DNA of 64,000 nt from the IMG/VR virus record IMGVR_UViG_3300042090_002370, positions 32,001-96,000 of that record. One strand, given 5' to 3'. The translations under genes and the position numbers were made by a program. Source of the stretch: a virus. The notes below the pieces were generated by a model. It did no database searches. It worked only from the letters and a program-made list of their open reading frames with translations, and was not told where the DNA came from. Shown here piece after piece: positions 13,604 through 60,111 of this stretch (positions are counted from its first letter, which is position 1; each line of letters begins with the position of its first letter).

Positions 13604-13612
13604 CTTATCCCC
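13604..13612 (-). promoter_or_regulatory. Phage-specific promoter motif P1 (GGGGATAAG)
   Basis: One of 7 intergenic copies of SGGRATAAG; followed after 6 nt by GGAGG and then ATG 13584. Confidence 0.75.
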
Positions 13613-13675
13613 GAAATGTGCAAAAACTTGCCTGGATGTAGGTCGCTAGGCTCCTTCGTTTCTTCTAGCGTCACG

Positions 13676-13684
13676 TGGTAACCT
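13676..13684 (+). promoter_or_regulatory. Extended -10 promoter (TGgTAACCT), leaderless
   Basis: TGn-TAACCT lies 8 nt upstream of ATG 13693; no SD. Confidence 0.5.
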
Positions 13685-13692
13685 TCCAGGCT

Positions 13693-14103
13693 ATGCCGCT
13701 GAACTCGCTGGACCAGATTCTAACCGTTCCAACGCTGTGCCTCATCATCGTTTTGGCCGTGATGACGCTGCTCCTGCGGAGATTGGCAGAGGCTGTCTGG
13801 CCAGTCCTTTCTTCTACGACGCCGCTGACGACCGCTCAGCGTGTCTGGGAAGAGTTCGTACTGCCGACCATCCCGGCGGCTATGGGTACGCTGTTCTGCT
13901 CGTTCGTGCCGATGAGCATGTACCCCTATCCAGCTGTAGCATCCGTAACGACGCTCTCCAGGATTCTCTACGGTTTCTCTCTTGGTTGGTTTTCTTCAGG
14001 CGGGTACCGTGGTATCTCCGCTGTCCTCAAGAAGAAGTGGAATATTAGCCTGCCTGGTGATACGGACCCGCCGCCGCGCTTGAACGGCACCGGCGGCCAC
14101 TAG
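13693..14103 (+). CDS. Holin-like membrane protein
   Basis: About 136 aa, three hydrophobic segments, basic C-terminal LKKKW. Confidence 0.5.
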   Translation: MPLNSLDQILTVPTLCLIIVLAVMTLLLRRLAEAVWPVLSSTTPLTTAQRVWEEFVLPTIPAAMGTLFCSFVPMSMYPYPAVASVTTLSRILYGFSLGWFSSGGYRGISAVLKKKWNISLPGDTDPPPRLNGTGGH

Positions 14104-14121
14104 AAACTTTCGTCGTAGGTT

Positions 14122-14130
14122 GGGAATAAG
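14122..14130 (+). promoter_or_regulatory. Phage-specific promoter motif P2 (GGGAATAAG)
   Basis: SGGRATAAG copy 34 nt upstream of the thyX ATG (14165). Confidence 0.75.
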
Positions 14131-14164
14131 ACCTGCGCACTCTCTAGTGCGAGGAGGCTTTCTC

Positions 14165-15076
14165 ATGCGCAAAGACGTCACCATTCTCACAGGCGACCCC
14201 ACCATCGAGCTCATCGCCGCGATGAAGCTATTGCCTATCGGCATCGAGGCCATGATGGACTGGGTTCGCGTCCACCGGCCAGAGTGTCTGCCGGACGACC
14301 CCGAGGATCAGAGCTGGCGTTCGCTCTTCCCGCACGACCTCGAGGAGGCCACGGCGAATGCGAACGACTCCATGGTCGTGCAGAAGCGGCCGCTCACCGA
14401 CAACGAGCTCCTCGTCGAGCTCGCCGGCAGGAAGTGTTACGACTCCTTCGGGAAGAAGGCCGGCAAGAAGTCCAACAGCGAGTACATCAAAAACACGCAG
14501 CAGGGCGACATCCCGCACGCCAGCATCCTCTACCACGCCAAGCTCAGCTTCTTCTTCGCCGGCATCTCCCGCCGGGTTAGCCACGAGCTCATCAGAAACT
14601 ATGTGGGCGCCGACCGTGATGAGGAGGGAGCTCCGTCGCAGGAATCCACGCGCTTCACGCACCACTACGGGTTCTTTATCTGCCCACCGCGTTATCTCGG
14701 CTCTGACGCCTTCTGGGATGCTGCCGCTGCCTCTGGCGTACGCCAGCACTTCGAGCAGTCCATGCAGTTGGCGTACGACAACTACCTCAAGGCCGTGGAG
14801 CTCGAGGTGAAGGAGTTTGAGTTACGGTATGGCAAGCCACCCACCAGCATCGACAAGAAGCGCATCTACGAGGCCGCCTCGAGCTTCCTGCCGCACCAGG
14901 CCGAGACCAGCTTCATCTGGACCACGAACCCAGCAGCCATCGCGAAGCTGGTACGTGAACGGGCGAACAACGCCGCCGACCTAGAAATACAGCGTTTCGC
15001 TCGGAAGCTTCGGCGCGTTGCAGTCGACTACTGCCCCAATTTATTTCCGCAAGTTTGGATGCAATCAACGGATTAG
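14165..15076 (+). CDS. thyX: Flavin-dependent thymidylate synthase (ThyX family), variant motif
   Basis: AGRKCY, HASILYH, GISRRVSHELIR, SQESTRF and AADLEIQRFA motifs. GAGGAGG RBS before ATG 14165. Confidence 0.8.
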   Translation: MRKDVTILTGDPTIELIAAMKLLPIGIEAMMDWVRVHRPECLPDDPEDQSWRSLFPHDLEEATANANDSMVVQKRPLTDNELLVELAGRKCYDSFGKKAGKKSNSEYIKNTQQGDIPHASILYHAKLSFFFAGISRRVSHELIRNYVGADRDEEGAPSQESTRFTHHYGFFICPPRYLGSDAFWDAAAASGVRQHFEQSMQLAYDNYLKAVELEVKEFELRYGKPPTSIDKKRIYEAASSFLPHQAETSFIWTTNPAAIAKLVRERANNAADLEIQRFARKLRRVAVDYCPNLFPQVWMQSTD

Positions 15077-15117
15077 CTGATTGGATAGACCTTGTAACAA
15101 AGAAAGAGGAGTAGAAC

Positions 15118-20513: not shown

Positions 20514-23366
20514 ATGAGCCACGCATGGGTCGGCCAATGGGGTGCGCTGGCCGTCCCTGCGGGGTGGTGGGGCGGTGCGGTAGGCGTCGCCACGCCTTCG
20601 GCTACCGGTTGGTTCGATCCCGAGCTTCTACGTCTGCCGTCGACTACGGCGTCACTGACTGGATCTATCCCAACATCAGAGGCGCTAGGCGCCTTCATTA
20701 TGACGGTTGTGCTCACGTTGCCTGGCATACCGAGCGGAGAGGGATGGTCTAAGGCTTCGCTGACGTATGGGGTTAGCGCATCAGGTATTGCTAGCGCAGA
20801 GGTTTTGGGGGCACCGAATGTAGGGGGGGCACTGTCACCGTCCGGCGTTTCTAGCGCCGAGGCCGTGGGTGCAGAGAAGACAACGTACGGGCTCACACCA
20901 GTTGGAATACCGTCATCAGAAGCGCTGGGTGCTGAAACTACGACGAGCGTGCTCGCGCCCTACGGCGTTTCTTCCGAAGAGAGGCTCGGCGCCGAAACTG
21001 TAACAGTTGGTATATCACCGCCAGGTGTGGCGACTGCGGAGTCCTTGTCGAAGGCCGGTACGACTTTGGGCGTGTCTACGTCTGGCATCGACAGCGCCGA
21101 GCGTGTTAGCGCTCCGACTACCTCGACGGTACTAGCACCAACCGGAATAAGCTCAGCTGAGTCTCTACCAGGCACCAGCACTACTTCTGGTCTTTCACCA
21201 TTCGGTATTGCGACATCTGAGGTTGTTGGCCAACCGAACGTAGGATGGGCTGTAGACGCCAACGGTATTCCGACCGCTGAAGGGCTAGGTGCAGGTACGC
21301 TTTCTGCTGCGCTCACTCCATCAGGTATCGATACTGCTGAGTCGTTACCGACAGCAAGTACTACAACTGCAGTATCTGTCGCTGGTATCTCGTCGGCTGA
21401 GACCGTTGGTGCTGGCGGTGTGGCGTCGCCACTGAACCCACCAGGAATCCCTAGTGCTGAAGCGCTGGGTGCGGAAACAGTCGCTTTCACAGGTACTGTT
21501 ACAGGTATTGACTCTGCCGAGTCGCTGCCCGGTGCGCGTACTACATTGGGTATCGCTACGTCGGGCGTAGCCTCCGCTGAGGTTGTCGGTGCGCCAAACA
21601 CTGGCTGGGCGGTAAACGCTACAGGCGTACCTACTGCTGAGGCCATCGGCGCAGAGACGGCAGTACTCTCTGGGTCTGTGCCTGGTATCGCAACAAGTGA
21701 GGTGCTGGGCGCACCAGCTACTGCATTGCAGGTCTCCGTGGCTGGAATTGCATCTGCAGAGGCCGTTGGAGCAGAGGATGTCTCGCCAGCGCTCTCACCA
21801 CCGGGTATTTCTACAACCGAGGCACTCAGCGCGGAGAAAGCCACAGTCACACTTTCGCCTTACGGGATATCTAGCTCGGAGGCTGTTGGTGCGGAGACGC
21901 TGTCGAGCTCGCTCGCGCTTTCAGGGATTGCTACGACGGAGATTATAGGAGCGCCGAATACAGGCCCTGCGCCAGCACCGGCAGGCATACCTACCGCAGA
22001 GGTTTTGGGCGCCACAACATCCAAGACCGTTTTGTCGGTGTCTGGGATCAGCAGCGCGGAAGCCCTCTCACCTTCGCCCATTTCTTTCGTGCTAGCGCCC
22101 AGTGGAATACCAACAGCGGAAGCGCTTGGTGCTGAGAACGTACTCATTGCGTATACGTTGTGGGGCATTGCTTCTGAGGAAAAGCTTGGCGCTACGACGT
22201 CGTCTAGCACCCTCAAAGGTTTTGGTATCGACTCCGCTGAGGTGCTGGGCCAGTCAACCACTGCGCGTACAGCGTTCATCTCAGGGATTATCGGTAGTGA
22301 TGAGGCATGGGGGTATGGAAAGACAACACAGGGTGTCAGCGTTGCCGGCATTTCTTCTACAGAAGCGCTTTCGGCTGCGAGCACTACTCAGTGCGTTTCC
22401 ACAAGCGGTATTGCCAGTAGCGAAGCTCTTGGCGCACCCGATGTCGGGTGGGCTCTACAGCCGGCTGGCATTTCGACCGTTGAGTCATTGGGCGCAGAGA
22501 AGATAACGCTGACGCTCGCACCGTCCGGCATTTCCAGCAATGAGGCCGTAGGCGCATCCGATGTGGGCCATGCGATATCGCCAGGCGGTATTCCTAGTGC
22601 CGAAGCGGTATCCAAGAGCGCTGTCTCTATTACGCTGTCCCCGTACGGCATCGGTTCCAATGAGGCGCTGTCAGGCGCGTCGGTTGCGCAGTCGTTCACC
22701 TTCTTTGGTATTGATAGCGTCGAGCGTGTGGGAGCGCCGAATGTTGGTTGGGCGCTGTCGCCGTCAGGGGTCGCATCAGCAGAGTCCGTCAATGTACAGA
22801 GAACAACCGCAACTTTCACGCTTGTTGGGATAGGAAGCGCTGAGGCTGTGGGTAGTATGAGTACCGGTCCAGCCATACGCATTGCTGGAATACCGGCAGC
22901 TGAGTCGGTTGGCTATTCCACGGTTTCAATTGTGTTGACTCTGCAAGGTATCTCCTCTCAAGAGGTGCTTTCGGAGCCGTCTGCTACGCAAGCGTCGGCT
23001 GTCGCCGGCATCGCAAGCGATTCAGTAATCGGTGCGGGCACCGTTCAGATTATTCTCGCGAACGTTACCGCTACAGGTGAGTGGATACAGTACACGTACC
23101 TCTCTGGCACTGGGGCTTCGATCGGGTACAGACAACCCAGCTTTATCTCCCTCGTGAGTGGTGCAAAAGGCATCGGTGTTCGGCCTACGTCGCGACCGGT
23201 TCAAGTTCCTGTGGCGGCACCCACATCGCCGGCTCCCCCTCAAGGCCCCGCACCGGTGTCTGGCAAGGATATGCTCCCCCCGACGATTAGCGTACCGCGC
23301 GTACAACTTCCAGAGCCGGCACCAGAGGGTCCGCCACAAGGGCCGGCACCGACCCGCCGACGATGA
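20514..23366 (+). CDS. Virion protein made of about 40 tandem 20-aa repeats with a Pro-rich C-terminus
   Basis: Repeat G(I/V)x(S/T)xExxG/S at a 20-aa period; GGAGAGGG RBS. Confidence 0.75.
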   Translation: MSHAWVGQWGALAVPAGWWGGAVGVATPSATGWFDPELLRLPSTTASLTGSIPTSEALGAFIMTVVLTLPGIPSGEGWSKASLTYGVSASGIASAEVLGAPNVGGALSPSGVSSAEAVGAEKTTYGLTPVGIPSSEALGAETTTSVLAPYGVSSEERLGAETVTVGISPPGVATAESLSKAGTTLGVSTSGIDSAERVSAPTTSTVLAPTGISSAESLPGTSTTSGLSPFGIATSEVVGQPNVGWAVDANGIPTAEGLGAGTLSAALTPSGIDTAESLPTASTTTAVSVAGISSAETVGAGGVASPLNPPGIPSAEALGAETVAFTGTVTGIDSAESLPGARTTLGIATSGVASAEVVGAPNTGWAVNATGVPTAEAIGAETAVLSGSVPGIATSEVLGAPATALQVSVAGIASAEAVGAEDVSPALSPPGISTTEALSAEKATVTLSPYGISSSEAVGAETLSSSLALSGIATTEIIGAPNTGPAPAPAGIPTAEVLGATTSKTVLSVSGISSAEALSPSPISFVLAPSGIPTAEALGAENVLIAYTLWGIASEEKLGATTSSSTLKGFGIDSAEVLGQSTTARTAFISGIIGSDEAWGYGKTTQGVSVAGISSTEALSAASTTQCVSTSGIASSEALGAPDVGWALQPAGISTVESLGAEKITLTLAPSGISSNEAVGASDVGHAISPGGIPSAEAVSKSAVSITLSPYGIGSNEALSGASVAQSFTFFGIDSVERVGAPNVGWALSPSGVASAESVNVQRTTATFTLVGIGSAEAVGSMSTGPAIRIAGIPAAESVGYSTVSIVLTLQGISSQEVLSEPSATQASAVAGIASDSVIGAGTVQIILANVTATGEWIQYTYLSGTGASIGYRQPSFISLVSGAKGIGVRPTSRPVQVPVAAPTSPAPPQGPAPVSGKDMLPPTISVPRVQLPEPAPEGPPQGPAPTRRR
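20661..23040 (+). repeat. Degenerate 60-nt coding tandem repeat (about 40 units)
   Basis: Units such as GIASAEVLGAPNVGGALSPS, GVSSAEAVGAEKTTYGLTPV and GIPSSEALGAETTTSVLAPY; diverged at the DNA level. Confidence 0.85.
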
Positions 23367-32659: not shown

Positions 32660-33649
32660 CTACTGTGTGCTGGTTGCAACTTGCTTTTGGTACCAAACTC
32701 CGAATGTAACTGCTGTTGTAACAGCGTCTGCTACCTCTTCTGGTGTTAGGTCACTCGGCTGAGGCGCTGCGTATTCTACGAAGCGCACTCCACCAGCGCG
32801 TCCGAGGAGCGCCTCGGCGGCTTTGAGCGTGCCGTTCAAGCCGGCTTCGTTGTTGTCGAGCATCAGGTAGATGGGAACTTCGTGTTTGACGAGCCACCAC
32901 CTCTGCTCTTTTGAAAGGGCGGAGCCGAGTAGGGCGACTACGGTACTTACGCCTGCTTGCGCTACGCGCATAGCGGCCTTGAAGCCCTCCACGACGACGA
33001 TGAAGCGGTCGTTGAAAGGGGTCTTGTCGAGCGCCTCCTTGCATTCACGGGCGTGCCAGATGATGGCCCGCTTTTCGGTCTTCCGTTCTGCCAGACCGAA
33101 GTCCTTGTACTCTTTGTCGTAGACCTTGTAACGGGGTGTGGCGCCTGTGAGGTTTCGTCCGCTGATGCCGACTAGCCGACCTTCCAGATCGCGCAATGGG
33201 AATGTGACGCGTTGATGCAGCTCGTCGAATCCTACGCTGAATGCCTGGCAGACTTCGGGGGAGAACCCTTCGTCGGCCATAAGCTGCGGGTAGTAGTTGA
33301 ATAGGCCTAGTATACCTTCTGGTAGCGGCTCACTTGTTGGTGCTACGGGGTTGAGTGGGTTGCCTGGGTCCGGTATATACTTTGCGACTTCGTCGAGGAT
33401 GCGCTGGTATCCGGCGATAATGTTGGCGTGCGTGAGCCCAATGTTGCGCAGGAAGGTGTAGAAGTTACCACTTGCGTGACAGGAGTGGCAGAACCAGAGG
33501 CCGCTGTTTACGTTGATTGCGAATGACGGGCCGTGCTCCTCGCTGCCATCTAACTTACGATGGAAGGGGCAGATAGCCATCGCGTTTTCATTGCCGGACG
33601 ACTTTACTTTCTTGAGGTATCGCCTAGCGATATCGAGGACCTCGGTCAT
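32660..33649 (-). CDS. dnaG: DnaG-like primase (CHC2 Zn finger + TOPRIM)
   Basis: CPFH...CHSC, FPLRDLEGRLVGISGR, VVEG, LDNNEAG. Confidence 0.85.
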   Translation of the reverse strand: MTEVLDIARRYLKKVKSSGNENAMAICPFHRKLDGSEEHGPSFAINVNSGLWFCHSCHASGNFYTFLRNIGLTHANIIAGYQRILDEVAKYIPDPGNPLNPVAPTSEPLPEGILGLFNYYPQLMADEGFSPEVCQAFSVGFDELHQRVTFPLRDLEGRLVGISGRNLTGATPRYKVYDKEYKDFGLAERKTEKRAIIWHARECKEALDKTPFNDRFIVVVEGFKAAMRVAQAGVSTVVALLGSALSKEQRWWLVKHEVPIYLMLDNNEAGLNGTLKAAEALLGRAGGVRFVEYAAPQPSDLTPEEVADAVTTAVTFGVWYQKQVATSTQ

Positions 33650-35061: not shown

Positions 35062-35097
35062 TCACCCTCCGTGGACGCGTAATCTGTATGCGACGCC

Positions 35098-35106
35098 CTT
35101 ATTCCG
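35098..35106 (-). promoter_or_regulatory. Phage-specific promoter motif P3 (CGGAATAAG)
   Basis: SGGRATAAG copy 36 nt upstream of the helicase ATG; heads the 11.5 kb replication operon. Confidence 0.75.
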
Positions 35107-35134
35107 CCAACGCGAGACAATGTGCAGCCCCGCG

Positions 35135-35160
35135 GAGCTAAAAAAAGGCGGCGCAGGCCG
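35135..35160 (-). terminator. Terminator T4: short hairpin + TTTTTTT + AGCTC
   Basis: CGGC/GCCG stem, U7 tract, AGCT; embedded in a larger structured intergenic region. Confidence 0.65.
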
Positions 35161-35269
35161 GACCGTCAACATGGCTCCGTTTTCGAAGCCATGTCAACGT
35201 GCCGAAGCCCCTTTTTTCTCGTGTCTTGTGGTGGCCCACAGCCGTAGCCACTAGGGGTTGTGGACGAGC

Positions 35270-40147: not shown

Positions 40148-40156
40148 CTTATCCCG
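40148..40156 (-). promoter_or_regulatory. Phage-specific promoter motif P4 (CGGGATAAG)
   Basis: SGGRATAAG copy 36 nt upstream of ATG 40111. Confidence 0.75.
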
Positions 40157-40181
40157 CTTTTCGTGCGCCATTGGCGCGGTG

Positions 40182-46400: not shown

Positions 46401-46852
46401 AAATGCAGGGGCAGGGTGGAGGTCCAGGTGGCGCCGGCGGCGAAGGCGCGATGCGGACAATGCCTGTGGAGATGCAGGCCGCTGGGGCCGGCGCGAGCGG
46501 TATGGCTGCGCCACCCGCGCAGCCTACGGACCCGTCGCCGCAGGACTTTCTCTCGTCGGTCTCGAGCCAGCTTACGGGTGAGACGAGACTGAACCAGGAG
46601 CAGAGCCAGAAGGGTATTGACCTTCCCACTTATGCGATGGGCCAAGCAAAGCTACTCGTAACGATGGCTAAGCCTCAGCAGGAACAGGCCCTGAGAAACA
46701 TTCAGGCGATGAGCCCGGAGCTCGCCGACCTGGTGAAGCAGATGCTGGCTGAACTGCAGCCGCAGGAGCAGGCTGATAGCGGTAGTGCTGGCGTAGACAC
46801 GCGACCTCTACCGCAACAGCGTCCACCGCGACGAGCGGGCGGGATGGTGTGA
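43487..46852 (+). CDS. Portal protein containing an intein
   Basis: NPLINAVVFKLSEY, DYFAYGN, WNPEDI, FHMRR...RGWGTPLLLPVL, ILNGMGVP: portal-like. Intein at aa 319-751; Q/G/P-rich C-terminus. Confidence 0.7.
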   Translation: MSFVGPGGAVASGPASGLRFAQSRGRIQGSNVTGVNYPSPFFDVAHTYLPVTVKAMFKWCRYYFLTNPLINAVVFKLSEYPVTDIIIDHPSNEVKRRWTDYFQDHLRWQPFRVEAGLDYFAYGNGCISLGFPFKKYLYCKNCAFRDEAGKIRAQWIFTSFQFRLTCPKCGYVGDALAKDFYYKNASGIKTIRWNPEDIEITYNDISGEYTYFYTIPATVRNDIVIGRKDIVEGVPQVFIQAMREQKGVIFSKDNFFHMRRPTLATQDRGWGTPLLLPVLKDTFYLQVMKKAQEAILLEHIVPLRVLFPQAGSGSSDPYCVSPETLVETPSGLLPAAEVREGEFLRSHTGAWRRVEYQKRRQIKPAEKVFKFQIASLPAFPFAVSEDHPILAVPRVSRKKPRAGLVDPTFIEAKALKKGDYVAYPIKRQIRRGQMLDLADYVTERAATDSWVYRRLSQSAAEAYEWLEQNADPVHAWGERKKLLEEKGWSEADYATAAAARREPKVDRVSRFLPMCPALGSLIGYYLSEGSYGGSTVSFSLHLEEKDFAELIESAVKRLGFRGVSHYERPEQHGRTVVIEDVILSELLVSMCGSGFAEKRIPDVVSEASDVIVLDMLRALFNGDGCDFKTTTDRVGLKLANPSMIMEARRLLLSFGLIGGVVKEEPTATTKFRTTSYQLNYNGHAAYKLRHLFGRPGGFDWQELPQKSGLVRGDYVLLRIDAVHEVADVPEVIGFQMAEDKSFCVAGVATHNTTINLIDWRDQVAAEIARWRYDNNYIPIMPLPLGNQTIGGDGRALMLTQEITTWSDQILNGMGVPVEFIRGGLSYAGTNVSMRMMENMFLGYISRQKALAKFVMKQVSSFLGWPEANIRFKPFKMADDLQRKAYLFQLNQANKVSDTTLLADSDLDQDEENEIMIRETDKRIEATKKQQLAMARIQGEAQQIMMKFQTKAQQDAQQAMGAPAAPGEPGGIEMQGQGGGPGGAGGEGAMRTMPVEMQAAGAGASGMAAPPAQPTDPSPQDFLSSVSSQLTGETRLNQEQSQKGIDLPTYAMGQAKLLVTMAKPQQEQALRNIQAMSPELADLVKQMLAELQPQEQADSGSAGVDTRPLPQQRPPRRAGGMV
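44441..45739 (+). mobile_element. Intein with LAGLIDADG homing endonuclease (433 aa)
   Basis: Block A CVSPETLV, block B SEDHPIL, LAGLIDADG motifs LIGYYLSEGS and MLRALFNGDG, terminal ATHN followed by Thr. Confidence 0.93.
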
Positions 46853-46902: not shown

Positions 46903-46934
46903 TAGCTAAAAAAAGGGGCGGCACTGCCGCCCCT
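46903..46934 (-). terminator. Terminator T5: hairpin + TTTTTTT + AGCTA
   Basis: AGGGGCGGCA/TGCCGCCCCT inverted repeat adjoining the stop of 46934..47155. Confidence 0.85.
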
Positions 46935-47155
46935 CATTTGCATGATTCCTCGACGATGGCTTCGGCGAGGTCGACGCGCCACTGTTCATCGAGGCGCTTT
47001 CGGTCCTCGTAGGTCTGGTAGGGAACTGAGAGGAGGAACCGGTAGCAGCGGCTGACGCTCTCCGGCGACCGGTCCTCCACTTGGTTAGGTCCTGACCATA
47101 TCCAGCGACCGCGATCGTTCCACCAGTACCCGGTATGCGGGAACCATGTGCGCAT
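46934..47155 (-). CDS. Hypothetical protein (Trp-rich, 73 aa)
   Basis: Coupled to the VWA gene stop; ends at T5. Confidence 0.6.
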   Translation of the reverse strand: MRTWFPHTGYWWNDRGRWIWSGPNQVEDRSPESVSRCYRFLLSVPYQTYEDRKRLDEQWRVDLAEAIVEESCK

Positions 47156-51154: not shown

Positions 51155-51163
51155 CTTATTCCC
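51155..51163 (-). promoter_or_regulatory. Phage-specific promoter motif P5 (GGGAATAAG)
   Basis: SGGRATAAG copy heading the MoxR/VWA unit. Confidence 0.75.
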
Positions 51164-51186
51164 GTAGTGTTCAACCTATTTCCGCG

Positions 51187-51342
51187 TTACTCGCCCTCGT
51201 CTTCGCTTTCCTCGTCGTCTTCATCGAAGTCTTCATCGAAGTCTTCGGACCCGTCGTCTGTAGGTAGCAGCTCGCGTTCGATCTTTCGCTCCATGCCGCC
51301 ACCCACCGTCTCTTCTTTTACCTTCTTGTCCTTCGGTCCCAT
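51187..51342 (-). CDS. Small protein with a highly acidic C-terminal tail (51 aa)
   Basis: GAAAGG RBS; MGPKDKKVKEE...SEDFDEDFDEDDEESEDEGE. Confidence 0.6.
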   Translation of the reverse strand: MGPKDKKVKEETVGGGMERKIERELLPTDDGSEDFDEDFDEDDEESEDEGE

Positions 51343-51378: not shown

Positions 51379-51387
51379 CTTATCCCG
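51379..51387 (-). promoter_or_regulatory. Phage-specific promoter motif P6 (CGGGATAAG)
   Basis: SGGRATAAG copy 36 nt upstream of ATG 51342; divergent from the RNAP gene. Confidence 0.75.
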
Positions 51388-51435
51388 CGGCGGTGCGTTT
51401 TTTGGTGTCGTTGGCCTTATGCCGGACGGCATGAG

Positions 51436-54400
51436 ATGATTGCAGCGGCCATGGCGTATTTGGACCCCAAGAAGGCGTTCGAACACCTGAAGGAACGCGT
51501 GCTCGAGGGCATACAGGACCAATTTGCCAAGAACCCCATTGTCGGGAAGAAGCAGTCGCTGCACCTTGAGGCGCTCGAAGTACGCGACAAGTTAGGTGAG
51601 GCAGACGACATCCGCGCACAGCACAAGGCAAAGGTGGAGAACGACACCTGGGCGGTGCCTATTTATGCCACACTGGCGCTCAAGGATAACGAGACCGGAA
51701 AGGCGTTAGACCGTCGAACTATCCGCATCGCGGAGATTCCGAAGACGACTAACAGGCACTCGTACATCATCGATGGGCAGGAGTATCAGGTCAACAACCA
51801 GTGGCAATTGCGGCACGGCATTTATGTAAAGCGCCGTGTGAACGGTGAGCTTGAGGCTGCGTGCAACGCGGGTCGCGGGTTCGATGTTGTGCTGGACCCG
51901 GCAACCAAAGTCTTTCGAATGGAGCACGGTAAGAGCCGCGGTAAGCTCCCCATCTACCCATTCCTCAAGACGCTTGGTGTGAGCGACGAAGATCTCATGA
52001 AGTCGTGGGGCAAGGAGATGTTCGAAGCGAATCAGAAGGCGCCGAAGTCGGACATTGCGCTCGAGAAATTCTACAAGGCGGATAAGCCGTGGGCAGGTAC
52101 TCCAACCAAGGAGGTCGCTGCCGAGCACTTCTACGACATGATGGAGAAGACGCATCTCCGTCCAGAGTCCACGCAACTCACGTTAGGGCGGCCCTTCACG
52201 CATGTATCCGGCGAGGCGCTGAAGCTCGCAACTGAGAAGATGCTCAAGGTACAGGCGGGGCACCCAGAGGATGACCGCGATTCACTGGTCTTCAAGGATC
52301 TACGTACCGCCGGTGACTTCGCCTATGACGCCATTCTACATCAGCGCAAGAATATTGAGACACGTGCCGGGCGACAGATCGACAAAGCAAAGGACGCCTA
52401 TGACGTCATGAAGTTCGACATGTTCAACAAGCCCATCAAGGGGGCGTTGTCCTCAGCGAACGCGGCGGCTATGCCGGCATCGCAGATCAATCCACTAGAG
52501 ATGGCGTCGTCTGCGATGCAGACTACTATCATGGGCGCAGGCGGTATTCGTACCGCGCAGCAGGTACAGCATGAAGCGAAGTTTGTGAATCCCAGCCATC
52601 TCGGTTTTCTTGATCCGCTCAACACACCGGAGGGTGAGAAAACAGGTGTCACATTGCGGCTGCCTATCGGTGTACGCAAGGTCGGGCACGAGGCGAAGAT
52701 TCCTCTCTACAACCTGCTCTCCAAAAAAACCGAGCTTGTCTCTCCAGGCGAGTTCATGGAGGCAAACATCGTCCTGCCAGATCAGGTGAAGTGGGAAGAT
52801 GGCGTACCGCATCCGCTGCACCATACAGTTCGCGCGAGCTCTAAGGGCAACGAGATTCGCGACGTGAAATTCGAGGATGCGCACTACGTTATGCGCAGCC
52901 CTTCTCAGCTTTTCAACATGACTTCGAACCTCATTCCATTCCTGGCGAACACGAGCGGTAACCGCGCGTCTATGGCGAGCAGGCATATGGAACAGGCGGT
53001 CTCGCTCTTGCATCGTGAGGCCCCACTTGTCCAGGTAGGTACAGGCTCCGACAAGGAAGGCATCGACACCTTCGAGAACATCATGGGCTACCAGGCGTCC
53101 CACGCTGCTTCGGAAGAAGGCAAAGTTGTAGCAGTGAACAGGGACGGCATTATCATTGAAGACCGCCTTGGTAAGAAGCACGAAGTTCAGCTCTACAACA
53201 ACTACCCGCTCAATGACGCCAAGAGTGTGATGCACTCTACACCCGTTGTCGCCGTCGGCGATCATGTGAAGAAGGGTCAGCTCATTGCAGACACGAACTT
53301 CTCCAAGAATGGGACGCTCGCTCTCGGCACGAACTTGCGCGTCGCGTACCTGCCCTTCAAAGGGTACAACTTCGAGGACGGTGTTGTCATTAGTGACAGC
53401 GCTGCCAAGAAGCTCTCGAGTGAGCATCTGCAGAAGCTGATGATGCCACTCGACCAGGAGACCATACTCGACAAGAAGCGCTTCCACATCTCCAACCCCG
53501 GGTTGATGACGAAGGAACAGTACGAGAAGATGGACTCGAACGGCATAGTGCGGGTGGGGCAGAAGGTCCAGCCAGGCGACCCGCTCGTTGCAGCGATGCG
53601 ACCGTACAAATTGAAGGACCGTACGGGTATGGCGGCTGTGCGCAAGGCCATGGGCGGTCGGCACGATGACCGCAGCATGCGGTGGGACAGCGACTTCGAG
53701 GGCGAGGTCGTAGGCGTACATCGCAGCGACAAAGGGCTGACCGTTCATGTTCGCACGGTCGAGCCTATGCAGGTCGGCGACAAGATCAGTAATCGTTATG
53801 GTGGGAAAGGTATCGTCACCAAGATTCTGCCCGACCCTGAGATGCCGCACACGAAGGACGGTAAGCATATAGAGGTAGCGCTAAACCCCAGCGGCATACC
53901 GGGGCGCATGAACGTGGGGCAGGTCTTCGAGACCTCCGTCGCCAAGATCGCCGAGAAGACCGGCAAGCCCTACATCGTGAAGAACTTCGACACGAACATG
54001 GACGTCATCGCCAAGGTCCAGGCTGACCTGAAGGCGCACGGGCTCTCGGACACCGAGGAGCTCAAGGATCCTGCGACTGGGCAGATCCTTGGGCAGGTGA
54101 CGGTGGGGCCGCAGCACATCTTCAAACTCGTTCACCAGATCGACAAGAAGCTTGCAGTGCGCAGCGGCAGTGGGACCCTGCCTGGGGCAGCGGCGGAGCA
54201 TTACGACTTGAATCTGCAGCCCATGGGTGGCAAGAGCACTGGCGGGCAGTCGATGGGCACGCTGGGGCTCTTCGCGCTCCTGGCGCACGGCGCCAAAGCA
54301 AACATCCGGGAGATGCAGACATACAAGTCGGAGGGCCCGGACCCGCAGACCGACCCGGCGAAGAGGTGGCCGAGCGACCACCACCGGATCTGGGCAGCCA

Positions 54401-57400
54401 TTCAGACTGGGCACCCACTACCGACGCCCAAGCCGACTTTTGCTTACCGCAAGTTCGAAGACATGCTACGCGGGAGTGGCATCAACATCGAGAAGAAGGG
54501 GCATGACCTTATCCTCTCGCCAATGACGGACCAACACATACGAGCGCTGGCGAAGAACGCACTGCCGCACCCTGCGGACATGCTGAACTCGAAGATGGAC
54601 AAGAACGGAGACCCTAAGCCTAAGGCCGGTGGGCTCTGGGATGAGAAGCTTACTGGTGGGTTGGGCGGTCGTCAGTGGACGCGAATCGAGCTATCTGAAC
54701 CGCTGCCAAACCCCATCTTCGAGAAGCCTATCAAGGCACTGACCGGGCTCTCTCCAAAAGACTTTAATGCTGTTCTGCATGGAAGTAAGGGCGTCACGGC
54801 GAATGGCAACATCACGGAGGCCGGCGCCGGCGTAACTGGCGGAGCGGGCATCAAGGTTTTGCTAGACCGCGTCAACGTTGCGCGCGATCTCGCCAAGGCC
54901 GAGGCTCAGCTGAAGATCGTCAAGGGGCAGAGCGTCGACCGTGTACTGAAGAAGGTAAAGTACTTGCGGGCGCTCAAGCAGATTGGGGTGACCCCAAGCG
55001 AGGCGTACATCCTTCACAACATCCCTGTCATGCCGCCCATCATGCGACCGGTATCGAAACTGCCGGATGGGTCACCTAAGTTCGACGATATCAACCAGCT
55101 CTATTCCGACTTCGCGAAGATCAACGATAAGTTGAAGGACCCCATCTTGGTGAGGAATCTCACTGACGAGGGGAAGTCGGATCTCCGCAAGGACTTCTAC
55201 GACGGCGCCAAGATGTTCATGGGCATGGGGCTCCAGTACGGAGATGCCAAGCACAAGGGGCTACTGCACCAGATTGCCGGCAGCTCACCGAAACACGGCT
55301 ACTTCCAGGACAAGCTCATCGCCCGCAAGCAGGATCTGACGATGCGCTCGACCATCGTCCCCGAGCCAGGTCTCGATTTGGATGAGGTGGGTCTGCCGAA
55401 GCACGCCGCGCTCGAGCTTTTCAAGCCCTTTGTCGTTCGCCAGCTCAAGCAGATGGGCGCCATACAGAACGAGGTGCAGGGCGCGGCCTTTGTAGAGAAG
55501 AAGAGCCCACAGGTCTGGCGTGCGCTCGATCGTGTGATGGCGGAGCGACCTATTCTCCTAAAGCGAGACCCTGCGCTGCACAAGTACAATGTGCAAGCCT
55601 TCCGTGCACGGCCTATTGAGGGCGACGCTGTGCGCATACACCCGCTCGTGACGGGCGGATACAACGCCGATTTCGACGGCGACACGATGAGTGCCTTCGT
55701 GCCCATCACGCACGATGCGGTGAACGAGGCCGTACGGATGTTCCCCTCTCATAACCTCTTCAGCGAGGCGACTGGCCGGCTTATGTACCAGCCGACGCTC
55801 GAGAGCGCCCTCGGACTCTACAAGCTGTCGGTAGTTGGTAAGGACTCCGGGCAGAAGTTTGAGCACGCTGGCCTGGCACTTGACGCCGTGCGTTCGGGGA
55901 AGCTTGGGTATACCGATGTCGTACACATCGGTGGCAAGAAAACCACGCCGGGGCGCATTCTGCTCTCCAGCGCGGTTCCGGAGGCTATGCAGAGCGAGAT
56001 GCTGCATGATCTTCACTATCGAATCGACGGTAAGTCAGCGGGCCTGAGCGCGCTTCTGACAGGCATTGCTAAGCATTACGGCCCGCAGTATGGAGAGGTC
56101 GTCAACAAGCTGAAGGATCTCGGCAACACTACGACATTCGGAGCAGCAGCGGTTCCGCGGGCTACTAGCGCTGGGCACGCGATGTCTTTTAGCACGTTGG
56201 GTAAGAACCCAGTCGCAACACTCAATAAGAAGATGGATGTCTTCATCCCAGTTGGGGCGCACACACTCTCGCTTAAGGACTTCGAGCCGGACAAGGCGTC
56301 GAGGGACCACGTGCTGTCAGCAGCTCACAAGGTCGTAGAGAAATACGCCGACGACCCGAAAATGACTAAGGACGAGAGGGATCGCAGAACCATTGCCGTA
56401 TACGAACACGCCGCCGACGAGATGAAGGCCCTACATGAAAAGAAGGAAGAGAAAGACCCAAGCAACCTCTACACAATGTACAAGGCTGGCGTGAAGCCTG
56501 GCTGGGACCAGTACAAACAGATGGTTCTAGCACCCATGATTTACAAGGATTCCGCTGATCGGAAGATTCCGATACCTGTGACCAAGAGCTACGCAGAGGG
56601 GCTAGACGTAGGCAGCTACTGGACTCAGATGCACGGCGCCCGACGCGGTTCGGTCATGAAGGTGCAAGAGGTCAGCGGTCCAGGCTATCTATCCAAGTTG
56701 CTCATGAACAACATGATGCACATTCTTGTGAACTCTCCTGATTGCGGGACGAGCAAGGGCATCGTCCTGGACGCCAATGAGGCAGATATTCATGATCGAT
56801 ACCTGCAGCAGGAGTTCACACACGGCAAGGTTACTTTTCCTGCGGGTACGCTACTCACCCCAAGCGTTGTCGGGAAGATCCGAGCGGCGAAGAAGGACGC
56901 CAAGCTGCTTGTACGAAGCCCGCTGAAATGCGAGGACCCGAAAGGGATTTGCCAGATGTGCTCAGGGCTTGGCTCGAGTGGTCAGCACTACGACCTGGGG
57001 CACAATCTCGGCGTGCAGTCTGCACAAGCCGTTGGTGAACGCGGCATCCAGTTAGCGCTCAAGAGCTTTCATACAGGTGGCGTAGGCGAACACAAGGGCG
57101 GCTCGAAGCTGCTCAACTCCTTCGAGCGCTTCAAGCAGCTTATGTACTTGCCTGAGAAAGTTCAGGACGAGTCCTCCCTAGCGATGAAGACTGGGAAGGT
57201 TGAACAGATCGTGCCTACGTCAACAGGAGTTGACATCTTCATCGGCGGGCAGAAGCACCATGTGGGCCGCGATACGAAGGGCATGCCGCTGCATCAGCCG
57301 CTGCCAGGCGCAGAGGCGGTAGAGGGCTATGTCCACTGGAAGGTTCCGGTGGTCGGGCAGCACCTCAAGGCAGGGGACACGCTCTCCGACCCCAACCGTA

Positions 57401-57915
57401 CGCTGCTCAACCCCCATCATCTCTATGCGGCGACAGGCTCCATTGAGGAGGTACAGAATCACCTCACGAATGAGATCTACGGGCTCTACCAGAAGGAAGG
57501 CATCAAGCGTCGAGCCATTGAAACGGTCGTGCGCGCGATGAGTAACCTAACCAAGGTCAATGACCCTGGCGAGCATCCCGATGTCCTCCGCGGTGAGTTC
57601 TACCCGCTGGCACAGGTGCAGCATATGAACCAAGAGCTGCTGCGCAACAAGAAGCGGCCTATCGAACACGAGCCGGTGATGAAAGGCATCAGCGCTATGC
57701 CTCATGCCCTCATTGAGGATTGGATGGCGAAGTTGCAGCATGAACATCTGCGAACGACGCTCACTGAGGCCGCGGCGATGGGCGGCATTTCCCACCTCCA
57801 TTCTACTCACCCGATTCCAGCCATTGCTTTCGGCGCCGAATTCGGGCTTACTTCCAAGGACGCGCTAAAGCCAGGGCATGAACACTTACGTGATGTGCCG
57901 GCGCATTACTACTAG
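51436..57915 (+). CDS. rpoBC: Single-chain DNA-directed RNA polymerase: fused beta-beta' subunits
   Basis: Beta motifs: YIIDGQE, NTPEGEKTG, LIPFL...NRASM, GYNFED, GDKISNRYGGKG, NPSGIPGRMNVGQ, GGQSMG. Beta' motifs: PVMPPIMRP, LELFKPF, catalytic NADFDGD (55663-55683), bridge helix HGARRG, trigger loop LKSFHTGG. No stop between the two halves. Start at 51436 or 51451. Confidence 0.96.
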   Translation: MIAAAMAYLDPKKAFEHLKERVLEGIQDQFAKNPIVGKKQSLHLEALEVRDKLGEADDIRAQHKAKVENDTWAVPIYATLALKDNETGKALDRRTIRIAEIPKTTNRHSYIIDGQEYQVNNQWQLRHGIYVKRRVNGELEAACNAGRGFDVVLDPATKVFRMEHGKSRGKLPIYPFLKTLGVSDEDLMKSWGKEMFEANQKAPKSDIALEKFYKADKPWAGTPTKEVAAEHFYDMMEKTHLRPESTQLTLGRPFTHVSGEALKLATEKMLKVQAGHPEDDRDSLVFKDLRTAGDFAYDAILHQRKNIETRAGRQIDKAKDAYDVMKFDMFNKPIKGALSSANAAAMPASQINPLEMASSAMQTTIMGAGGIRTAQQVQHEAKFVNPSHLGFLDPLNTPEGEKTGVTLRLPIGVRKVGHEAKIPLYNLLSKKTELVSPGEFMEANIVLPDQVKWEDGVPHPLHHTVRASSKGNEIRDVKFEDAHYVMRSPSQLFNMTSNLIPFLANTSGNRASMASRHMEQAVSLLHREAPLVQVGTGSDKEGIDTFENIMGYQASHAASEEGKVVAVNRDGIIIEDRLGKKHEVQLYNNYPLNDAKSVMHSTPVVAVGDHVKKGQLIADTNFSKNGTLALGTNLRVAYLPFKGYNFEDGVVISDSAAKKLSSEHLQKLMMPLDQETILDKKRFHISNPGLMTKEQYEKMDSNGIVRVGQKVQPGDPLVAAMRPYKLKDRTGMAAVRKAMGGRHDDRSMRWDSDFEGEVVGVHRSDKGLTVHVRTVEPMQVGDKISNRYGGKGIVTKILPDPEMPHTKDGKHIEVALNPSGIPGRMNVGQVFETSVAKIAEKTGKPYIVKNFDTNMDVIAKVQADLKAHGLSDTEELKDPATGQILGQVTVGPQHIFKLVHQIDKKLAVRSGSGTLPGAAAEHYDLNLQPMGGKSTGGQSMGTLGLFALLAHGAKANIREMQTYKSEGPDPQTDPAKRWPSDHHRIWAAIQTGHPLPTPKPTFAYRKFEDMLRGSGINIEKKGHDLILSPMTDQHIRALAKNALPHPADMLNSKMDKNGDPKPKAGGLWDEKLTGGLGGRQWTRIELSEPLPNPIFEKPIKALTGLSPKDFNAVLHGSKGVTANGNITEAGAGVTGGAGIKVLLDRVNVARDLAKAEAQLKIVKGQSVDRVLKKVKYLRALKQIGVTPSEAYILHNIPVMPPIMRPVSKLPDGSPKFDDINQLYSDFAKINDKLKDPILVRNLTDEGKSDLRKDFYDGAKMFMGMGLQYGDAKHKGLLHQIAGSSPKHGYFQDKLIARKQDLTMRSTIVPEPGLDLDEVGLPKHAALELFKPFVVRQLKQMGAIQNEVQGAAFVEKKSPQVWRALDRVMAERPILLKRDPALHKYNVQAFRARPIEGDAVRIHPLVTGGYNADFDGDTMSAFVPITHDAVNEAVRMFPSHNLFSEATGRLMYQPTLESALGLYKLSVVGKDSGQKFEHAGLALDAVRSGKLGYTDVVHIGGKKTTPGRILLSSAVPEAMQSEMLHDLHYRIDGKSAGLSALLTGIAKHYGPQYGEVVNKLKDLGNTTTFGAAAVPRATSAGHAMSFSTLGKNPVATLNKKMDVFIPVGAHTLSLKDFEPDKASRDHVLSAAHKVVEKYADDPKMTKDERDRRTIAVYEHAADEMKALHEKKEEKDPSNLYTMYKAGVKPGWDQYKQMVLAPMIYKDSADRKIPIPVTKSYAEGLDVGSYWTQMHGARRGSVMKVQEVSGPGYLSKLLMNNMMHILVNSPDCGTSKGIVLDANEADIHDRYLQQEFTHGKVTFPAGTLLTPSVVGKIRAAKKDAKLLVRSPLKCEDPKGICQMCSGLGSSGQHYDLGHNLGVQSAQAVGERGIQLALKSFHTGGVGEHKGGSKLLNSFERFKQLMYLPEKVQDESSLAMKTGKVEQIVPTSTGVDIFIGGQKHHVGRDTKGMPLHQPLPGAEAVEGYVHWKVPVVGQHLKAGDTLSDPNRTLLNPHHLYAATGSIEEVQNHLTNEIYGLYQKEGIKRRAIETVVRAMSNLTKVNDPGEHPDVLRGEFYPLAQVQHMNQELLRNKKRPIEHEPVMKGISAMPHALIEDWMAKLQHEHLRTTLTEAAAMGGISHLHSTHPIPAIAFGAEFGLTSKDALKPGHEHLRDVPAHYY

Positions 57916-57920
57916 GAGCC

Positions 57921-59195
57921 ATGCTGAATTGGGCATCGAAATTTCGCACGTCGATGACGAGCGTGGCTGGTCATGGGCCGGCTAAGATTTGCCAAGGGCG
58001 CATCGTCAACATCAATCTGCTCAAGTGGACGGTCGATGTTATCGCGCAATTCGACAGGAAGCGTTACTTCAACATCCAGGTGAGCTCGCCATATCTGCAC
58101 CATGCCAGCGGCGAGGGCATCTACGTCATGCCTGAGGTCAATGCGACCGTCATGGTCTGCATCCCCTCGGACAGCACGGCGCCCTTCGTTCTAGGTTTCA
58201 TTATGCCGACTGAGACCGTCGACTCCTCTACGGACGACGCGCCTCTCGGTACGACGCAGCACGCTCAGGCACCGGCGAACGCGACTGACTCCTCCTATGC
58301 CGCCGGACGCACAGCGAATCCTGGTGACATCGTTATGCGCTCGAGGGACAACAACTTTGTCATTCTGCATCGAGGGGGCGTGCTCCAGGTGGGTGCGACT
58401 CCGCTCGCGCAGCGCCTCTATATCCCTCTGCAGAATCTCGTGATGGACATCAGCGAGAACTATGAGCACCAGAATTCTGGTGGTGCCATCAAGTGGGGTA
58501 TACAGGAAGGCCCTTCGCAGACGACGCACCCCACGCAGTTCGTCCAAACCTTCCGTGTCTTTGCCGAGAATCAGTACGCGGACGTGCGCGTGACGTGCGG
58601 CGACATCACCGGACCATACGGGGACCCAGACGGCGGTGTTGCCGCTGCTGCGGATGGCTTGGGGCAGAAGAACAACACGGCTACAGCTAGCAACTGCGTT
58701 CTCTTCGAGATCGCCGTTACACCGCAAGGCTTCAACGTCAGCACTGGCGTGCCCAACGATGTTCCGGTTTCAGCGTCTACCTTCCGCTTCGCCTACGACA
58801 GAACTGGCAACGTTTTTTTACGTAATGCCGGCAACTTCTCCCAGCAAACGCAGGGTAAATACACGCTTTCGGTAGTCGGTGACCTCAGCGTTTCTTCGCA
58901 GGGTGTCGTGGAGCTCACATCACCCAAGAGCGTCAAGATCAACGGCGGAAAAGAGACGGACATTATAGGGACTGTCGTACGGCTGAATGCTGGGAAGAAC
59001 GCCGTGGCCTCTAAGGGCGACATGGTGCGTATCGATGTCGCAACCACTACGCCATTACAGGTCGGGCCGACTCCTATCCCGGTTGTCGGCTCTCCAACCG
59101 GCCCGTGGAGCATCGCTCCTGGAACACCCATCATCTTGACTGGCACGCTCTGGGGTTCGATTGTTGTCTGCCAAAACAGTTCGGTGCTGACGTGA
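57921..59195 (+). CDS. Baseplate central spike (gp5/gpV-like OB fold + beta repeats)
   Basis: AGGAG RBS; GRIVNI...VMPEVNATVMV...FVLG OB-fold pattern; PGDIVM; C-terminal beta-strand repeats and VASKGD. Confidence 0.6.
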   Translation: MLNWASKFRTSMTSVAGHGPAKICQGRIVNINLLKWTVDVIAQFDRKRYFNIQVSSPYLHHASGEGIYVMPEVNATVMVCIPSDSTAPFVLGFIMPTETVDSSTDDAPLGTTQHAQAPANATDSSYAAGRTANPGDIVMRSRDNNFVILHRGGVLQVGATPLAQRLYIPLQNLVMDISENYEHQNSGGAIKWGIQEGPSQTTHPTQFVQTFRVFAENQYADVRVTCGDITGPYGDPDGGVAAAADGLGQKNNTATASNCVLFEIAVTPQGFNVSTGVPNDVPVSASTFRFAYDRTGNVFLRNAGNFSQQTQGKYTLSVVGDLSVSSQGVVELTSPKSVKINGGKETDIIGTVVRLNAGKNAVASKGDMVRIDVATTTPLQVGPTPIPVVGSPTGPWSIAPGTPIILTGTLWGSIVVCQNSSVLT

Positions 59196-59809
59196 CCGTA
59201 CAGTTCGTAGAAGAGCTCTCGCTCGGTGAGCTGATGCCGGGGATTGTTCTTCTCATCCCACCACTGCTTGCCGGCTTCGATCTTGTTCTCACTGGGCCGT
59301 TCGGTCTTGGGACACTGCTAGCGGATGTCTCGGTGCAGCTCGCGGCGTCGATCTCAATTCAGGTGCAGATAGGGCTGCAGATATCGAACCCCTTTGCCGC
59401 TATTGAGGCGCAGCTTGCAGCGTTAGTACAAATTCAAGCGACGCTAGAGGCCTCGCTTTCTCTGGGGCTGCCTTCAGTAGCTGTTGGCTTCTCGGCATCC
59501 TTGAGCGCTAATGCTGCCATTGCGGCGTCCCTTGGCGCTCAGATTGGTGGTATTCAAGCGCTCATTCAAGCCTCCTTGGCATTGAAGATTCCAATCGTTT
59601 CCCTACTGGCTGCGCTGGAGGTCGGTCCAGCGGACCTCTTCACGGTCGGCTTCGATACGCCGGACAACATCAATGACATCGGTGCAGGTATACTCTCAGC
59701 TCGGCTGTCGCCCGGTTGCACGCTTGCGGACACCCCCGTCTACGGCGTCATCTTGCTCACCAACGGCGCTGCGGTACAGGCCAGCATGGGCCTCATCTTC
59801 AATCCGTAG
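59192..59809 (+). CDS. Hydrophobic Ala/Leu-rich virion protein
   Basis: GTG start overlapping the upstream stop (GTGA). Confidence 0.6.
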   Translation: MTVQFVEELSLGELMPGIVLLIPPLLAGFDLVLTGPFGLGTLLADVSVQLAASISIQVQIGLQISNPFAAIEAQLAALVQIQATLEASLSLGLPSVAVGFSASLSANAAIAASLGAQIGGIQALIQASLALKIPIVSLLAALEVGPADLFTVGFDTPDNINDIGAGILSARLSPGCTLADTPVYGVILLTNGAAVQASMGLIFNP

Positions 59810-59839
59810 CTAAAAAGAAGCGGGTTGTGCCCGCTTCTT
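59807..59839 (-). terminator. Terminator T6: hairpin + U-tract + AGCTA
   Basis: AAGAAGCGGG/CCCGCTTCTT inverted repeat; minus strand ends CTTCTTTTTAGCTA. Confidence 0.85.
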
Positions 59840-59845
59840 CGCGCC

Positions 59846-60083
59846 TCAGCGCGTTTCGGCCAGGTGCATCGAGTAGAGGATGGTTATGAAGACGCGCTCC
59901 GCACTTCGGACGATGACACCGGGCTTCTCGTGATTGTAGTTCACGAGGTCTGAGCGCACGCTCGGGTCCTTCAGAAACACGATACCTGGCTTGTGCGCCA
60001 GCCACTCGTTTGTCTCCTTCTCTACGACGTCAGGGGGCTCCGAAGAAGAACTTGATCTGCGGTTTGGGATGAAATTCGGACAT
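59846..60083 (-). CDS. 78-aa protein split by a +1 frameshift at CCC_TGA (programmed, or a 1-nt insertion)
   Basis: GGAGG RBS, MSEFHPKPQIKFFFGAP then stop. The +1 frame continues PDVVEKETNEWLAHKPG...ITILYSMHLAETR to TGA 59846, just before T6. Confidence 0.55.
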
Positions 60084-60102
60084 GGTAGGTACCTCCATCA
60101 TC

Positions 60103-60111
60103 CTTATCCCG
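60103..60111 (-). promoter_or_regulatory. Phage-specific promoter motif P7 (CGGGATAAG)
   Basis: Followed after 6 nt by GGAGG and then ATG 60083, the same geometry as P1. Confidence 0.75.

Follow-up and report, generated by a model that had tools for sequence, protein, structure and literature searches.

A nine-base word that recurs in front of genes raises the question of what it does and which enzyme reads it. The word is SGGRATAAG (S, C or G; R, A or G), and it was found in a stretch of 64,000 nucleotides (nt), hereafter the window, which comprises bases 32001-96000 of the 163,859-bp IMG/VR record IMGVR_UViG_3300042090_002370 (hereafter G000). An earlier note, made from the letters of the window, had proposed that the word is a promoter motif. 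The record is linear, with a completeness of 88% (CheckV), and its DNA originates from a wetland metagenome. The G+C content is 59%, and GGAGG ribosome sites are very strong. No relative at the DNA level was matched among cultured phages (megablast, 20 kb). As described below, the word probably belongs to an early/middle promoter with two boxes, which would be read by a holoenzyme of the phage's own, made of a sigma factor of its lineage and its own polymerase.

The word is strongly enriched. Eight copies were found in the window, while 100 dinucleotide shuffles gave an expectation of 0.82 +/- 0.94 and none of the 100 reached eight. In the whole 164-kb record, the word occurs 18 times and the reversed word, used as the control, twice. 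Sixteen of the 18 copies are closely followed, on their own strand, by a ribosome site and a start codon, and GGGATAAG is the top enriched 8-mer of the non-coding fraction of G000. Seven of the eight copies in the window are intergenic, each oriented toward the next gene. The open reading frame (ORF) caller used is crude and extends ORFs over several promoters, and its "in gene" flags were overruled by inspection of the sites. The earlier note had listed these seven copies and one within a gene, at 21143, and all eight coordinates and strands proved exact. Its further observations also held: the seven copies are co-oriented with the next gene at 6-36 nt from the start codon (up to about 58 nt elsewhere in the genome), GGAGG begins exactly 6 nt past the word at 13604 and 60103, a GTG does so at 51155, and the enrichment is far from random. 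The copy at 21143-21151 (plus strand) lies within a 950-amino-acid (aa) ORF (20514-23366). Since it lacks both the upstream box and the downstream dinucleotide described next, it is probably due to chance.

The word forms only a part of a longer signal. Alignment of 16 sites of G000 revealed a second box, GCAA, which starts 19 nt and ends 16 nt ahead of the word's first base (G in 12/16, C in 13/16, A in 12/16 and A in 13/16). Downstream of the word, a pyrimidine at position 6 and a G at position 7 (hereafter Y-G) were each found at 15 of the 16 sites. The full signal is accordingly GCAA-N15-SGGRATAAG-N5-Y-G. Y-G is present in 25 of all 28 copies in G000 of the relaxed word, GGNATAAG. In the window, GCAA-N15-17-GGNATAAG occurs three times (0.02 expected) and GGNATAAG-N5-YR nine times (1.0 expected); the latter form adds a tandem copy at 51416-51423(-) and two doubtful copies, 25508(-) and 38171(-). 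Outside the window, the copies with the best GCAA boxes are concentrated before small genes at 141-145 kb of the record. Y-G is kept at sites that have no ribosome site at that place, for example 14122, 35098 and 51155, and outside the window 12427, 143760 and 163326. At other sites it is the beginning of tGGAGG.

Taking the G seven nt past the word as the predicted start, +1, places the word at -15 to -7 (G at -14 and -13, R at -12, A at -11, T at -10, A at -9 and -8, and G at -7) and GCAA at -34 to -31. The predicted +1 is the first base of a stem-loop at 12427, 14122, 142754 and 163326, and other transcripts would begin with GGAGG itself. Two boxes on the same strand, held at about -35 and -10 by a fixed spacer, form the arrangement of promoters for sigma70-family factors. 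The suggestion of the earlier note that the word is a -10-like element with its start about 7 nt downstream is favored by the strict orientation, the fixed second box, the fixed Y-G, the stem-loops at several predicted +1 positions, the conservation of orthologous sites in relatives and the occurrence of the signal in cultured phages whose hosts are unrelated. Other parts of that note need revision. The "AA/CAAT-like patch" about 20 nt upstream does exist, but it is really a defined GCAA box at a fixed 15 nt before the word. There is no TTGACA, as stated, but the -35 position is occupied by GCAA. Involvement of a phage RNA polymerase is plausible, but it would require a sigma factor, which the note had not seen and which we found in relatives as a protein of the gp10 type.

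The window encodes a fused beta-beta' RNA polymerase of 2159 aa (51436-57915, plus strand) with Rpb2 and Rpb1 domains and the catalytic NADFDGD. A second, paralogous polymerase was not found in the record. The enzyme is nearer to bacterial beta/beta' than to the phiKZ-type enzymes, and its beta' part aligns with residues 170-382 of B. subtilis beta' and 181-390 of E. coli beta' without deletion, the clamp helices included. Sigma docks at the beta' clamp helices. The fused polymerase is considered a candidate for the core enzyme of the system.

The same fused enzyme was found in six IMG/VR contigs with 59-67% identity. In four of them (L015, L016, L018 and L020), GCAA-N16 followed by GGAATAAG, GGGATAAG, GGAACAAG or GAGATAAG lies divergent from the polymerase gene; L015 and L018 carry GCAA-N16-GGnATAAG, and the variants are GGAACAAG in L016 and GAGATAAG in L020. 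The orthologous place of L017 has GGGAATAAC, where a clear GCAA box is lacking. Relatives also conserve the sites that precede the dnaB and thymidylate-synthase-like orthologs, as GGCATAAG before dnaB at 102500(+) of one relative (G004) and as a site before the thymidylate-synthase-like ortholog at 41419(-) of another (G001). The latter, a complete genome of 194 kb, contains about 30 copies, mostly with GGAGG after exactly 6 nt. In four further contigs that bear a sigma gene, GGNATAAG-N5-YG occurs 15, 9, 7 and 15 times, as compared with 1, 0, 1 and 0 for the control. Three long contigs among these four also encode the fused polymerase.

G001 and G004 encode a protein of 265-274 aa with recognisable sigma regions 2, 3 and 4. 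Searched alone, this protein matched only sigma factors in the PDB, and all 63 PDB matches of a profile of four clade members were sigma factors (best 4.4e-12). It is orthologous to gp10 of Salmonella phage Arash (E values of 1e-20 and 7e-24), and Vibrio phage D69 also encodes a gp10-type sigma factor (1e-48). Genomes with such a factor include G001, G004, G006-G009, Arash and D69. By sequence, the clade sigma is no closer to FliA than to SigA.

In G000 itself, the Pfam sigma domains r2, r4 and r4_2 and TIGR02937 found no match, tblastn of the G001 sigma and of Arash gp10 and gp196 gave nothing credible, and a hidden Markov model of five lineage sigmas had no match at E <= 10 among all six-frame ORFs. 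G001 is collinear with G000, and its sigma gene falls exactly at the contig ends of G000. Because the contig ends fall at this syntenic position, the sigma gene of G000 probably lies in the unassembled 12% of the genome. The ends of G000 (163700-163859 and 1-100) consist of short tandem repeats (CGACCGCGACC... and AGTGCGGCGG...), which probably explain why the assembly stopped where relatives carry the sigma gene.

The polymerase is 30-33% identical to a split gene pair in Arash (OQ632216) and in Vibrio phages D69, D148 and D181. These phages share with the present clade a homologous polymerase, a gp10-type sigma, a packaged-type helicase, a portal and the promoter architecture on the strand opposite to the virion genes. 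They differ in that their polymerase is split (about 1525 and 606 aa), whereas that of the clade is fused, and the core word is GGTATAAG in Arash and GNTATAAG in D69. In Arash, GGTATAAG occurs 30 times on the minus strand and only once on the plus strand. The sixth position after the word is T in 26 of the 30 and the seventh is a purine in all 30. A weak CCA box takes the position of GCAA; downstream, at 15-30 nt, come a ribosome site and an ATG. Those of the sites for which annotation was consulted lie 28-48 nt upstream of genes on the minus strand. The plus strand carries the portal, polymerase and structural genes. The D69 variant is CAA(T/C)A-N14-16-G(T/C/G)TATAAG-N5-YR, of which 47 of 61 copies are on one strand. 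It is without the first G, and GGNATAAG as such is not enriched in D69 (24 copies, 26 in the control). The features of this class of promoter in the Arash lineage are nGnnATAAG-N5-YR, an upstream CAA box, the non-virion strand, a gp10-type sigma and a bacterial-type polymerase, and the signal described here agrees with them.

Mass spectrometry of Arash virions, as reported in the Arash paper, detected the polymerase gp206 most, and gp216, the sigma factor gp10 and the helicase gp217 were also found (PMC10585845). Promoters are mentioned nowhere in that paper. A second annotated sigma factor of Arash, gp196 (345 aa; OQ632216, 120656-121693, plus strand), is not among the virion proteins in the part of the protein table that was consulted, and no counterpart of it was found in the clade (best E 0.17). 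The FxDELxKIA peptide is not present on the polymerase of G000. It is carried at the N-terminus of a helicase homologous to Arash gp217 (157972-160134(+) of G000; also 153952(+)).

These results could be explained by the following mechanism. The word would be the -10 region of GCAA(-34..-31)-N15-S(-15)GGRATAAG(-7)-N5-Y(-1)G(+1), a promoter that would start the non-virion units, namely small early genes and genes of nucleotide metabolism and DNA replication. The compact sigma factor of the lineage, the ortholog of Arash gp10, would recognise it with a geometry of the sigma70 family that is closest to group 3 (sigma-28). Within sigma, GGRATAAG would be recognised by region 2, with A(-11) flipped out, and GCAA by region 4. 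As the core enzyme, the single-chain beta-beta' polymerase of the phage itself is the most likely partner of this sigma. If the Arash virion is a guide, both proteins might be delivered with the DNA, and these units would then fire first, without host sigma-70.

It is worth considering whether the word is a promoter at all. An operator for a DNA-binding regulator would be one alternative, and an element acting at the RNA level, such as a translation enhancer or a processing site, would be another. The GGAGG that follows by exactly 6 nt at many sites, especially in G001, could in fact be taken as part of an extended translation signal. Y-G, however, lies at a fixed distance and persists without a ribosome site, whereas start codons are found anywhere between 6 and about 58 nt from the word. 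The word is also asymmetric and strictly oriented, its second box lies 15 nt upstream, beyond any plausible mRNA, and Rfam gave no match in the window. For these reasons we regard the word as a promoter, and an operator or RNA signal as extremely unlikely. If it is a promoter, the holoenzyme of the host, with its primary sigma or its flagellar sigma-28, might read it as an ordinary early promoter. The bases A(-11)T(-10)A(-9)A(-8), together with G(-14), agree with an extended -10 element, sigma-28 promoters share the register, and the best copies stand before small early-looking genes. Against this, primary sigmas require T at -7, where the signal has an invariant G, the base at -12 is a purine in the clade, and TTGACA is lacking. 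Sites with the sigma-70 consensus are not enriched in the 38.5 kb around the polymerase gene (4 found and 5.5 expected in one scan, 4 and 6.6 in the other). Sigma-28 promoters have CC at -14/-13 and TA at -34/-33, where the signal has GG and GC; in Arash and D69 the base at -12 is T; and a lytic phage would be unlikely to depend on a flagellar sigma. Moreover, the signal tracks the phage lineage and not the host. Its occurrence in phages of Salmonella, of Vibrio and of the host of a wetland clade with 59-65% G+C argues strongly against a host sigma as the reader, and we consider this explanation very unlikely.

The choice of core enzyme is more delicate. A phage sigma might direct the core polymerase of the host, as gp28 of SPO1 and gp55 of T4 do, and the fused polymerase would then serve another class of genes, for example the late genes. 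The two-box geometry implies a factor of the sigma70 family and says nothing on the core, the phage sigma has ordinary regions 2-4, and no ATAAG promoter precedes the polymerase gene itself. All of this would suit the host core. On the other hand, sigma, polymerase and motif co-occur in all relatives examined, the beta' part of the phage enzyme retains the clamp-helix region for sigma docking, and both gp10 and the phage polymerase are among the proteins detected in Arash virions. The use of the host core is thus unlikely in our view, and we prefer the holoenzyme composed of the lineage sigma and the phage polymerase.

Several observations weigh against this preference. No method used detected a sigma gene in the record of G000, and its probable location in the missing part of the genome is deduced from synteny. 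In G001, the sigma gene apparently lies inside a unit that is headed by an ATAAG promoter and ended by a strong terminator. In that case the sigma would need to arrive with the virion or be made first by another route. Such a position would fit an injected holoenzyme that makes more sigma, and it would equally fit a sigma for a later class of promoters. Many sites have a weak GCAA box or none, for instance about three quarters of those in G001. The Arash authors themselves caution that abundant proteins may be carry-over in the virion counts (PMC10585845). Finally, the sole RNA run that bears this phage, a wetland metatranscriptome, is kept as contigs, of which 18 are short phage contigs with more than 99% identity, and assembled contigs cannot reveal starts, strand or level. 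One of them ends at 35097, beside the site before the helicase gene; it was rejected as evidence of a start for this reason.

The sites of the window were analyzed individually. P1 (13597-13631, minus strand) has GCAA at 13628-13631 and the core GGGGATAAG at 13604-13612, and its predicted start, G 13597, is the first G of GGAGG. It heads a 246-aa gene (12844-13584) whose product looks secreted, with an N-terminus like a signal peptide; this protein had no PHROG match. P2 (14103-14137, plus strand) has a weak box, GAAA, at 14103-14106 and the core GGGAATAAG at 14122-14130. Its predicted start, G 14137, opens a 5' stem-loop, and the gene behind it is the thymidylate-synthase-like gene (14165-15076; phrog_85, 8e-16). 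At P4 (35091-35125, minus strand), the box is GCAC (35122-35125), the core is CGGAATAAG (35098-35106) and the predicted start is G 35091. P4 heads a minus-strand unit that encodes a DnaB-like helicase (33646-35061), a primase, a 402-aa ORF, DNA polymerase A, a UvsX-like recombinase and a Cas4-like exonuclease. P5 (40141-40175, minus strand) carries GCCAA with a one-base shift (40171-40175) and the core CGGGATAAG (40148-40156). It is the sole site with g-A in place of Y-G, the predicted start being A 40141, and it heads a 206-aa gene (39491-40111) and an SNF2/ResIII helicase gene (37721-39487).

The remaining sites are on the minus strand as well. P6 (51148-51182) has the box GAAA at 51179-51182 and the core GGGAATAAG at 51155-51163. 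The predicted start, G 51148, is the G of the GTG codon, and the message is possibly leaderless. The product is a 35-aa membrane peptide conserved in L015, L016 and L018. P7 (51372-51406), with a weak box ACCA (51403-51406), the core CGGGATAAG (51379-51387) and the predicted start G 51372, is divergent from the polymerase gene. It heads a conserved gene for a very acidic protein of 51 aa (51190-51342). The tandem copy upstream of it, P7' (51409-51443), has the core GGCATAAG at 51416-51423, an exact GCAA at 51440-51443 that overlaps the first codons of the polymerase ORF, and the predicted start G 51409. The acidity of the 51-aa protein is extreme in its C-terminal half (DFDEDFDEDDEESEDEGE), and its gene is kept beside the polymerase gene in relatives. 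A DNA mimic or a polymerase-binding protein may be guessed. P8 (60096-60130) has an exact GCAA at 60127-60130 and the core CGGGATAAG at 60103-60111, and its predicted start, G 60096, is the first G of GGAGG. The small ORF behind it begins with ATG 60083 and has only 17 codons (60030-60083), whereas the ortholog in G001 has 55 aa. This could be due to a frameshift or an assembly error, or the gene could be genuinely tiny.

The plus-strand units that hold the genes for the portal, the large terminase, the packaged-type helicase and the polymerase have no such word in front of them. The portal gene (43487-46852, plus strand), a homolog of Arash gp204, is one such virion gene. This gene is split by an insertion of about 450 aa; the insertion contains a LAGLIDADG domain and resembles an intein or a homing endonuclease insert. 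Most of the plus-strand proteins were left without a name by PHROG searches. No conserved word was detected by k-mer enrichment in front of the plus-strand (virion) units, and a search of three genomes by k-mer enrichment for a second, late promoter word gave only ribosome sites and the terminator tail TAGCTA. AGTACT was considered as a late word. It is enriched, yet its context was inconsistent, and it was rejected.

Other elements were observed near these units. Terminators composed of a hairpin and a U-tract are followed directly by (C)TAGCTAC, at 46913-46935(-) and 35140-35170(-) in the window and at 20700, 47440, 131640, 141150, 143080 and 143300 of G000. Non-coding DNA is enriched for TAGCTA, with 16 of its 40 copies. 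At the equivalent place of terminators in Arash and D69 stands TTTTAGC(C/T), often right before the next ATAAG promoter. In L015, L016, L018 and L020, TTGC(A/T)(C/G)-N18-TAC(G/C)CT is found on the polymerase strand, 20-60 nt before the start codon of the polymerase gene. It looks like a host-type promoter, and the TTGC in it is reverse-complementary to GCAA, the box of the divergent ATAAG promoter. This element is not present in the window. In G001 (L021-L030), 10 of 26 promoters have a CCTCC-like sequence just before the word and GGAGG 6 nt after it, against a background of about 10%; examples are 134263(-), 109674(-), 95508(-) and 5245(+), and a single case was found in G000, at 154601(+). 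By analogy with late genes of T4, RNA that reads through from upstream could fold so as to hide the ribosome site, whereas RNA started at the promoter could not.

Phage-private promoters are already known. Literature searches on the word itself, and on a virion sigma combined with a phage polymerase, did not turn up any account of the ATAAG promoter of the Arash lineage. To our knowledge, the multisubunit polymerases of phages studied so far (phiKZ, AR9, crAss-like and P23-45) have no sigma70-family factor and use short promoters of one box. Here the full two-box grammar of bacterial sigmas is combined, within one lineage, with a true sigma and a compact beta-beta' enzyme of one chain. We put forward, tentatively, a complete private system of a widespread and mostly uncultured lineage, in which the single-chain core and the sigma are carried in the virion, are injected, and read GCAA-N15-GGnATAAG with G at -7; early and replication genes would then be expressed without a host initiation factor, and probably without alpha subunits as well. 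If this is true, it would be the first sigma-dependent holoenzyme delivered by a virion, and the enzyme would be a minimal polymerase of the bacterial type whose promoter is defined. For such a minimal transcription system, the promoter is defined and candidates for both the sigma and the core are at hand, and the cultured members of the lineage, Arash on Salmonella and the D69 type on Vibrio, allow direct tests. The word also provides a rule for annotation, flagging the heads of non-virion units in genomes that are almost impossible to annotate. The invariant G at -7 raises a structural question, namely in what way region 2 of sigma recognises the final base of the -10 element.

The signal was compared with known promoter systems. 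In SPO1 (gp28 and gp33/34) and T4 (gp55; TATAAATA), phage sigmas act on the host core and recognise a consensus used only by the phage. The sigma of the present lineage would resemble them in redirecting transcription to a consensus unlike the -10 element of the host. Those phages, however, lack their own polymerase, and the targets of their sigmas are middle or late genes, whereas the promoter described here precedes early and replication genes in a lineage with its own core enzyme. With the extended -10 promoters of sigma-70 (TGnTATAAT), the signal shares A(-11)T(-10)A(-9)A(-8), G at -14, a predicted start 7 nt on with Y(-1)R(+1), and an optional -35 box. It differs in the invariant G instead of T at -7, in R instead of T at -12 in the clade, in S instead of T at -15, and in GCAA instead of TTGACA. 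Having G at -7 in every copy, R at -12 and no TTGACA, it is not a primary sigma-70 promoter (TTGACA-N17-TATAAT).

Sigma-28 (FliA) promoters are closer in form. The fliC promoter of P. aeruginosa has (-15)GCCGATAA(-8) and (-36)TCTAAAG(-30), with GC as an extended -10 and A(-11) flipped out (PMC12784957). With the predicted start, the two signals have in common the register and two boxes, GATAA at -12 to -8, AA at -32/-31, a G/C-rich extended -10 at -15 to -13, the 15 nt between the TAAA or GCAA box and the 8-9-mer, and a compact sigma of about 250-270 aa as the reader, which for the ATAAG signal is the most likely one. Apart from the bases at -14/-13 and -34/-33 given above, the ATAAG signal differs in its conserved G at -7, in the base at -12, which varies within the phage lineage (G or A here, T in Arash and D69), and in the genes that it serves, which are replication and early genes of a phage and not flagellar genes. 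The register and GATAA are thus shared, but the signal is not a member of the sigma-28 class (TAAA-N15-GCCGATAA).

The early promoters of the virion polymerases of phiKZ and AR9 consist of a single AT-rich word and are used without sigma (PMC7598289). They too can be found computationally as a word of about 10 nt near -10 upstream of early operons, in phages that carry their own multisubunit polymerase; packaging of the polymerase in the particle would be a further likeness, drawn for this lineage by analogy with Arash. The jumbo-phage enzymes, however, are composed of four to five polypeptides, with neither a sigma70-family factor nor a -35 box. The fused chain of bacterial type, the true sigma of the lineage, the two boxes and the G-rich 5' half of the word set the ATAAG promoter apart from the early promoters of these virion polymerases.

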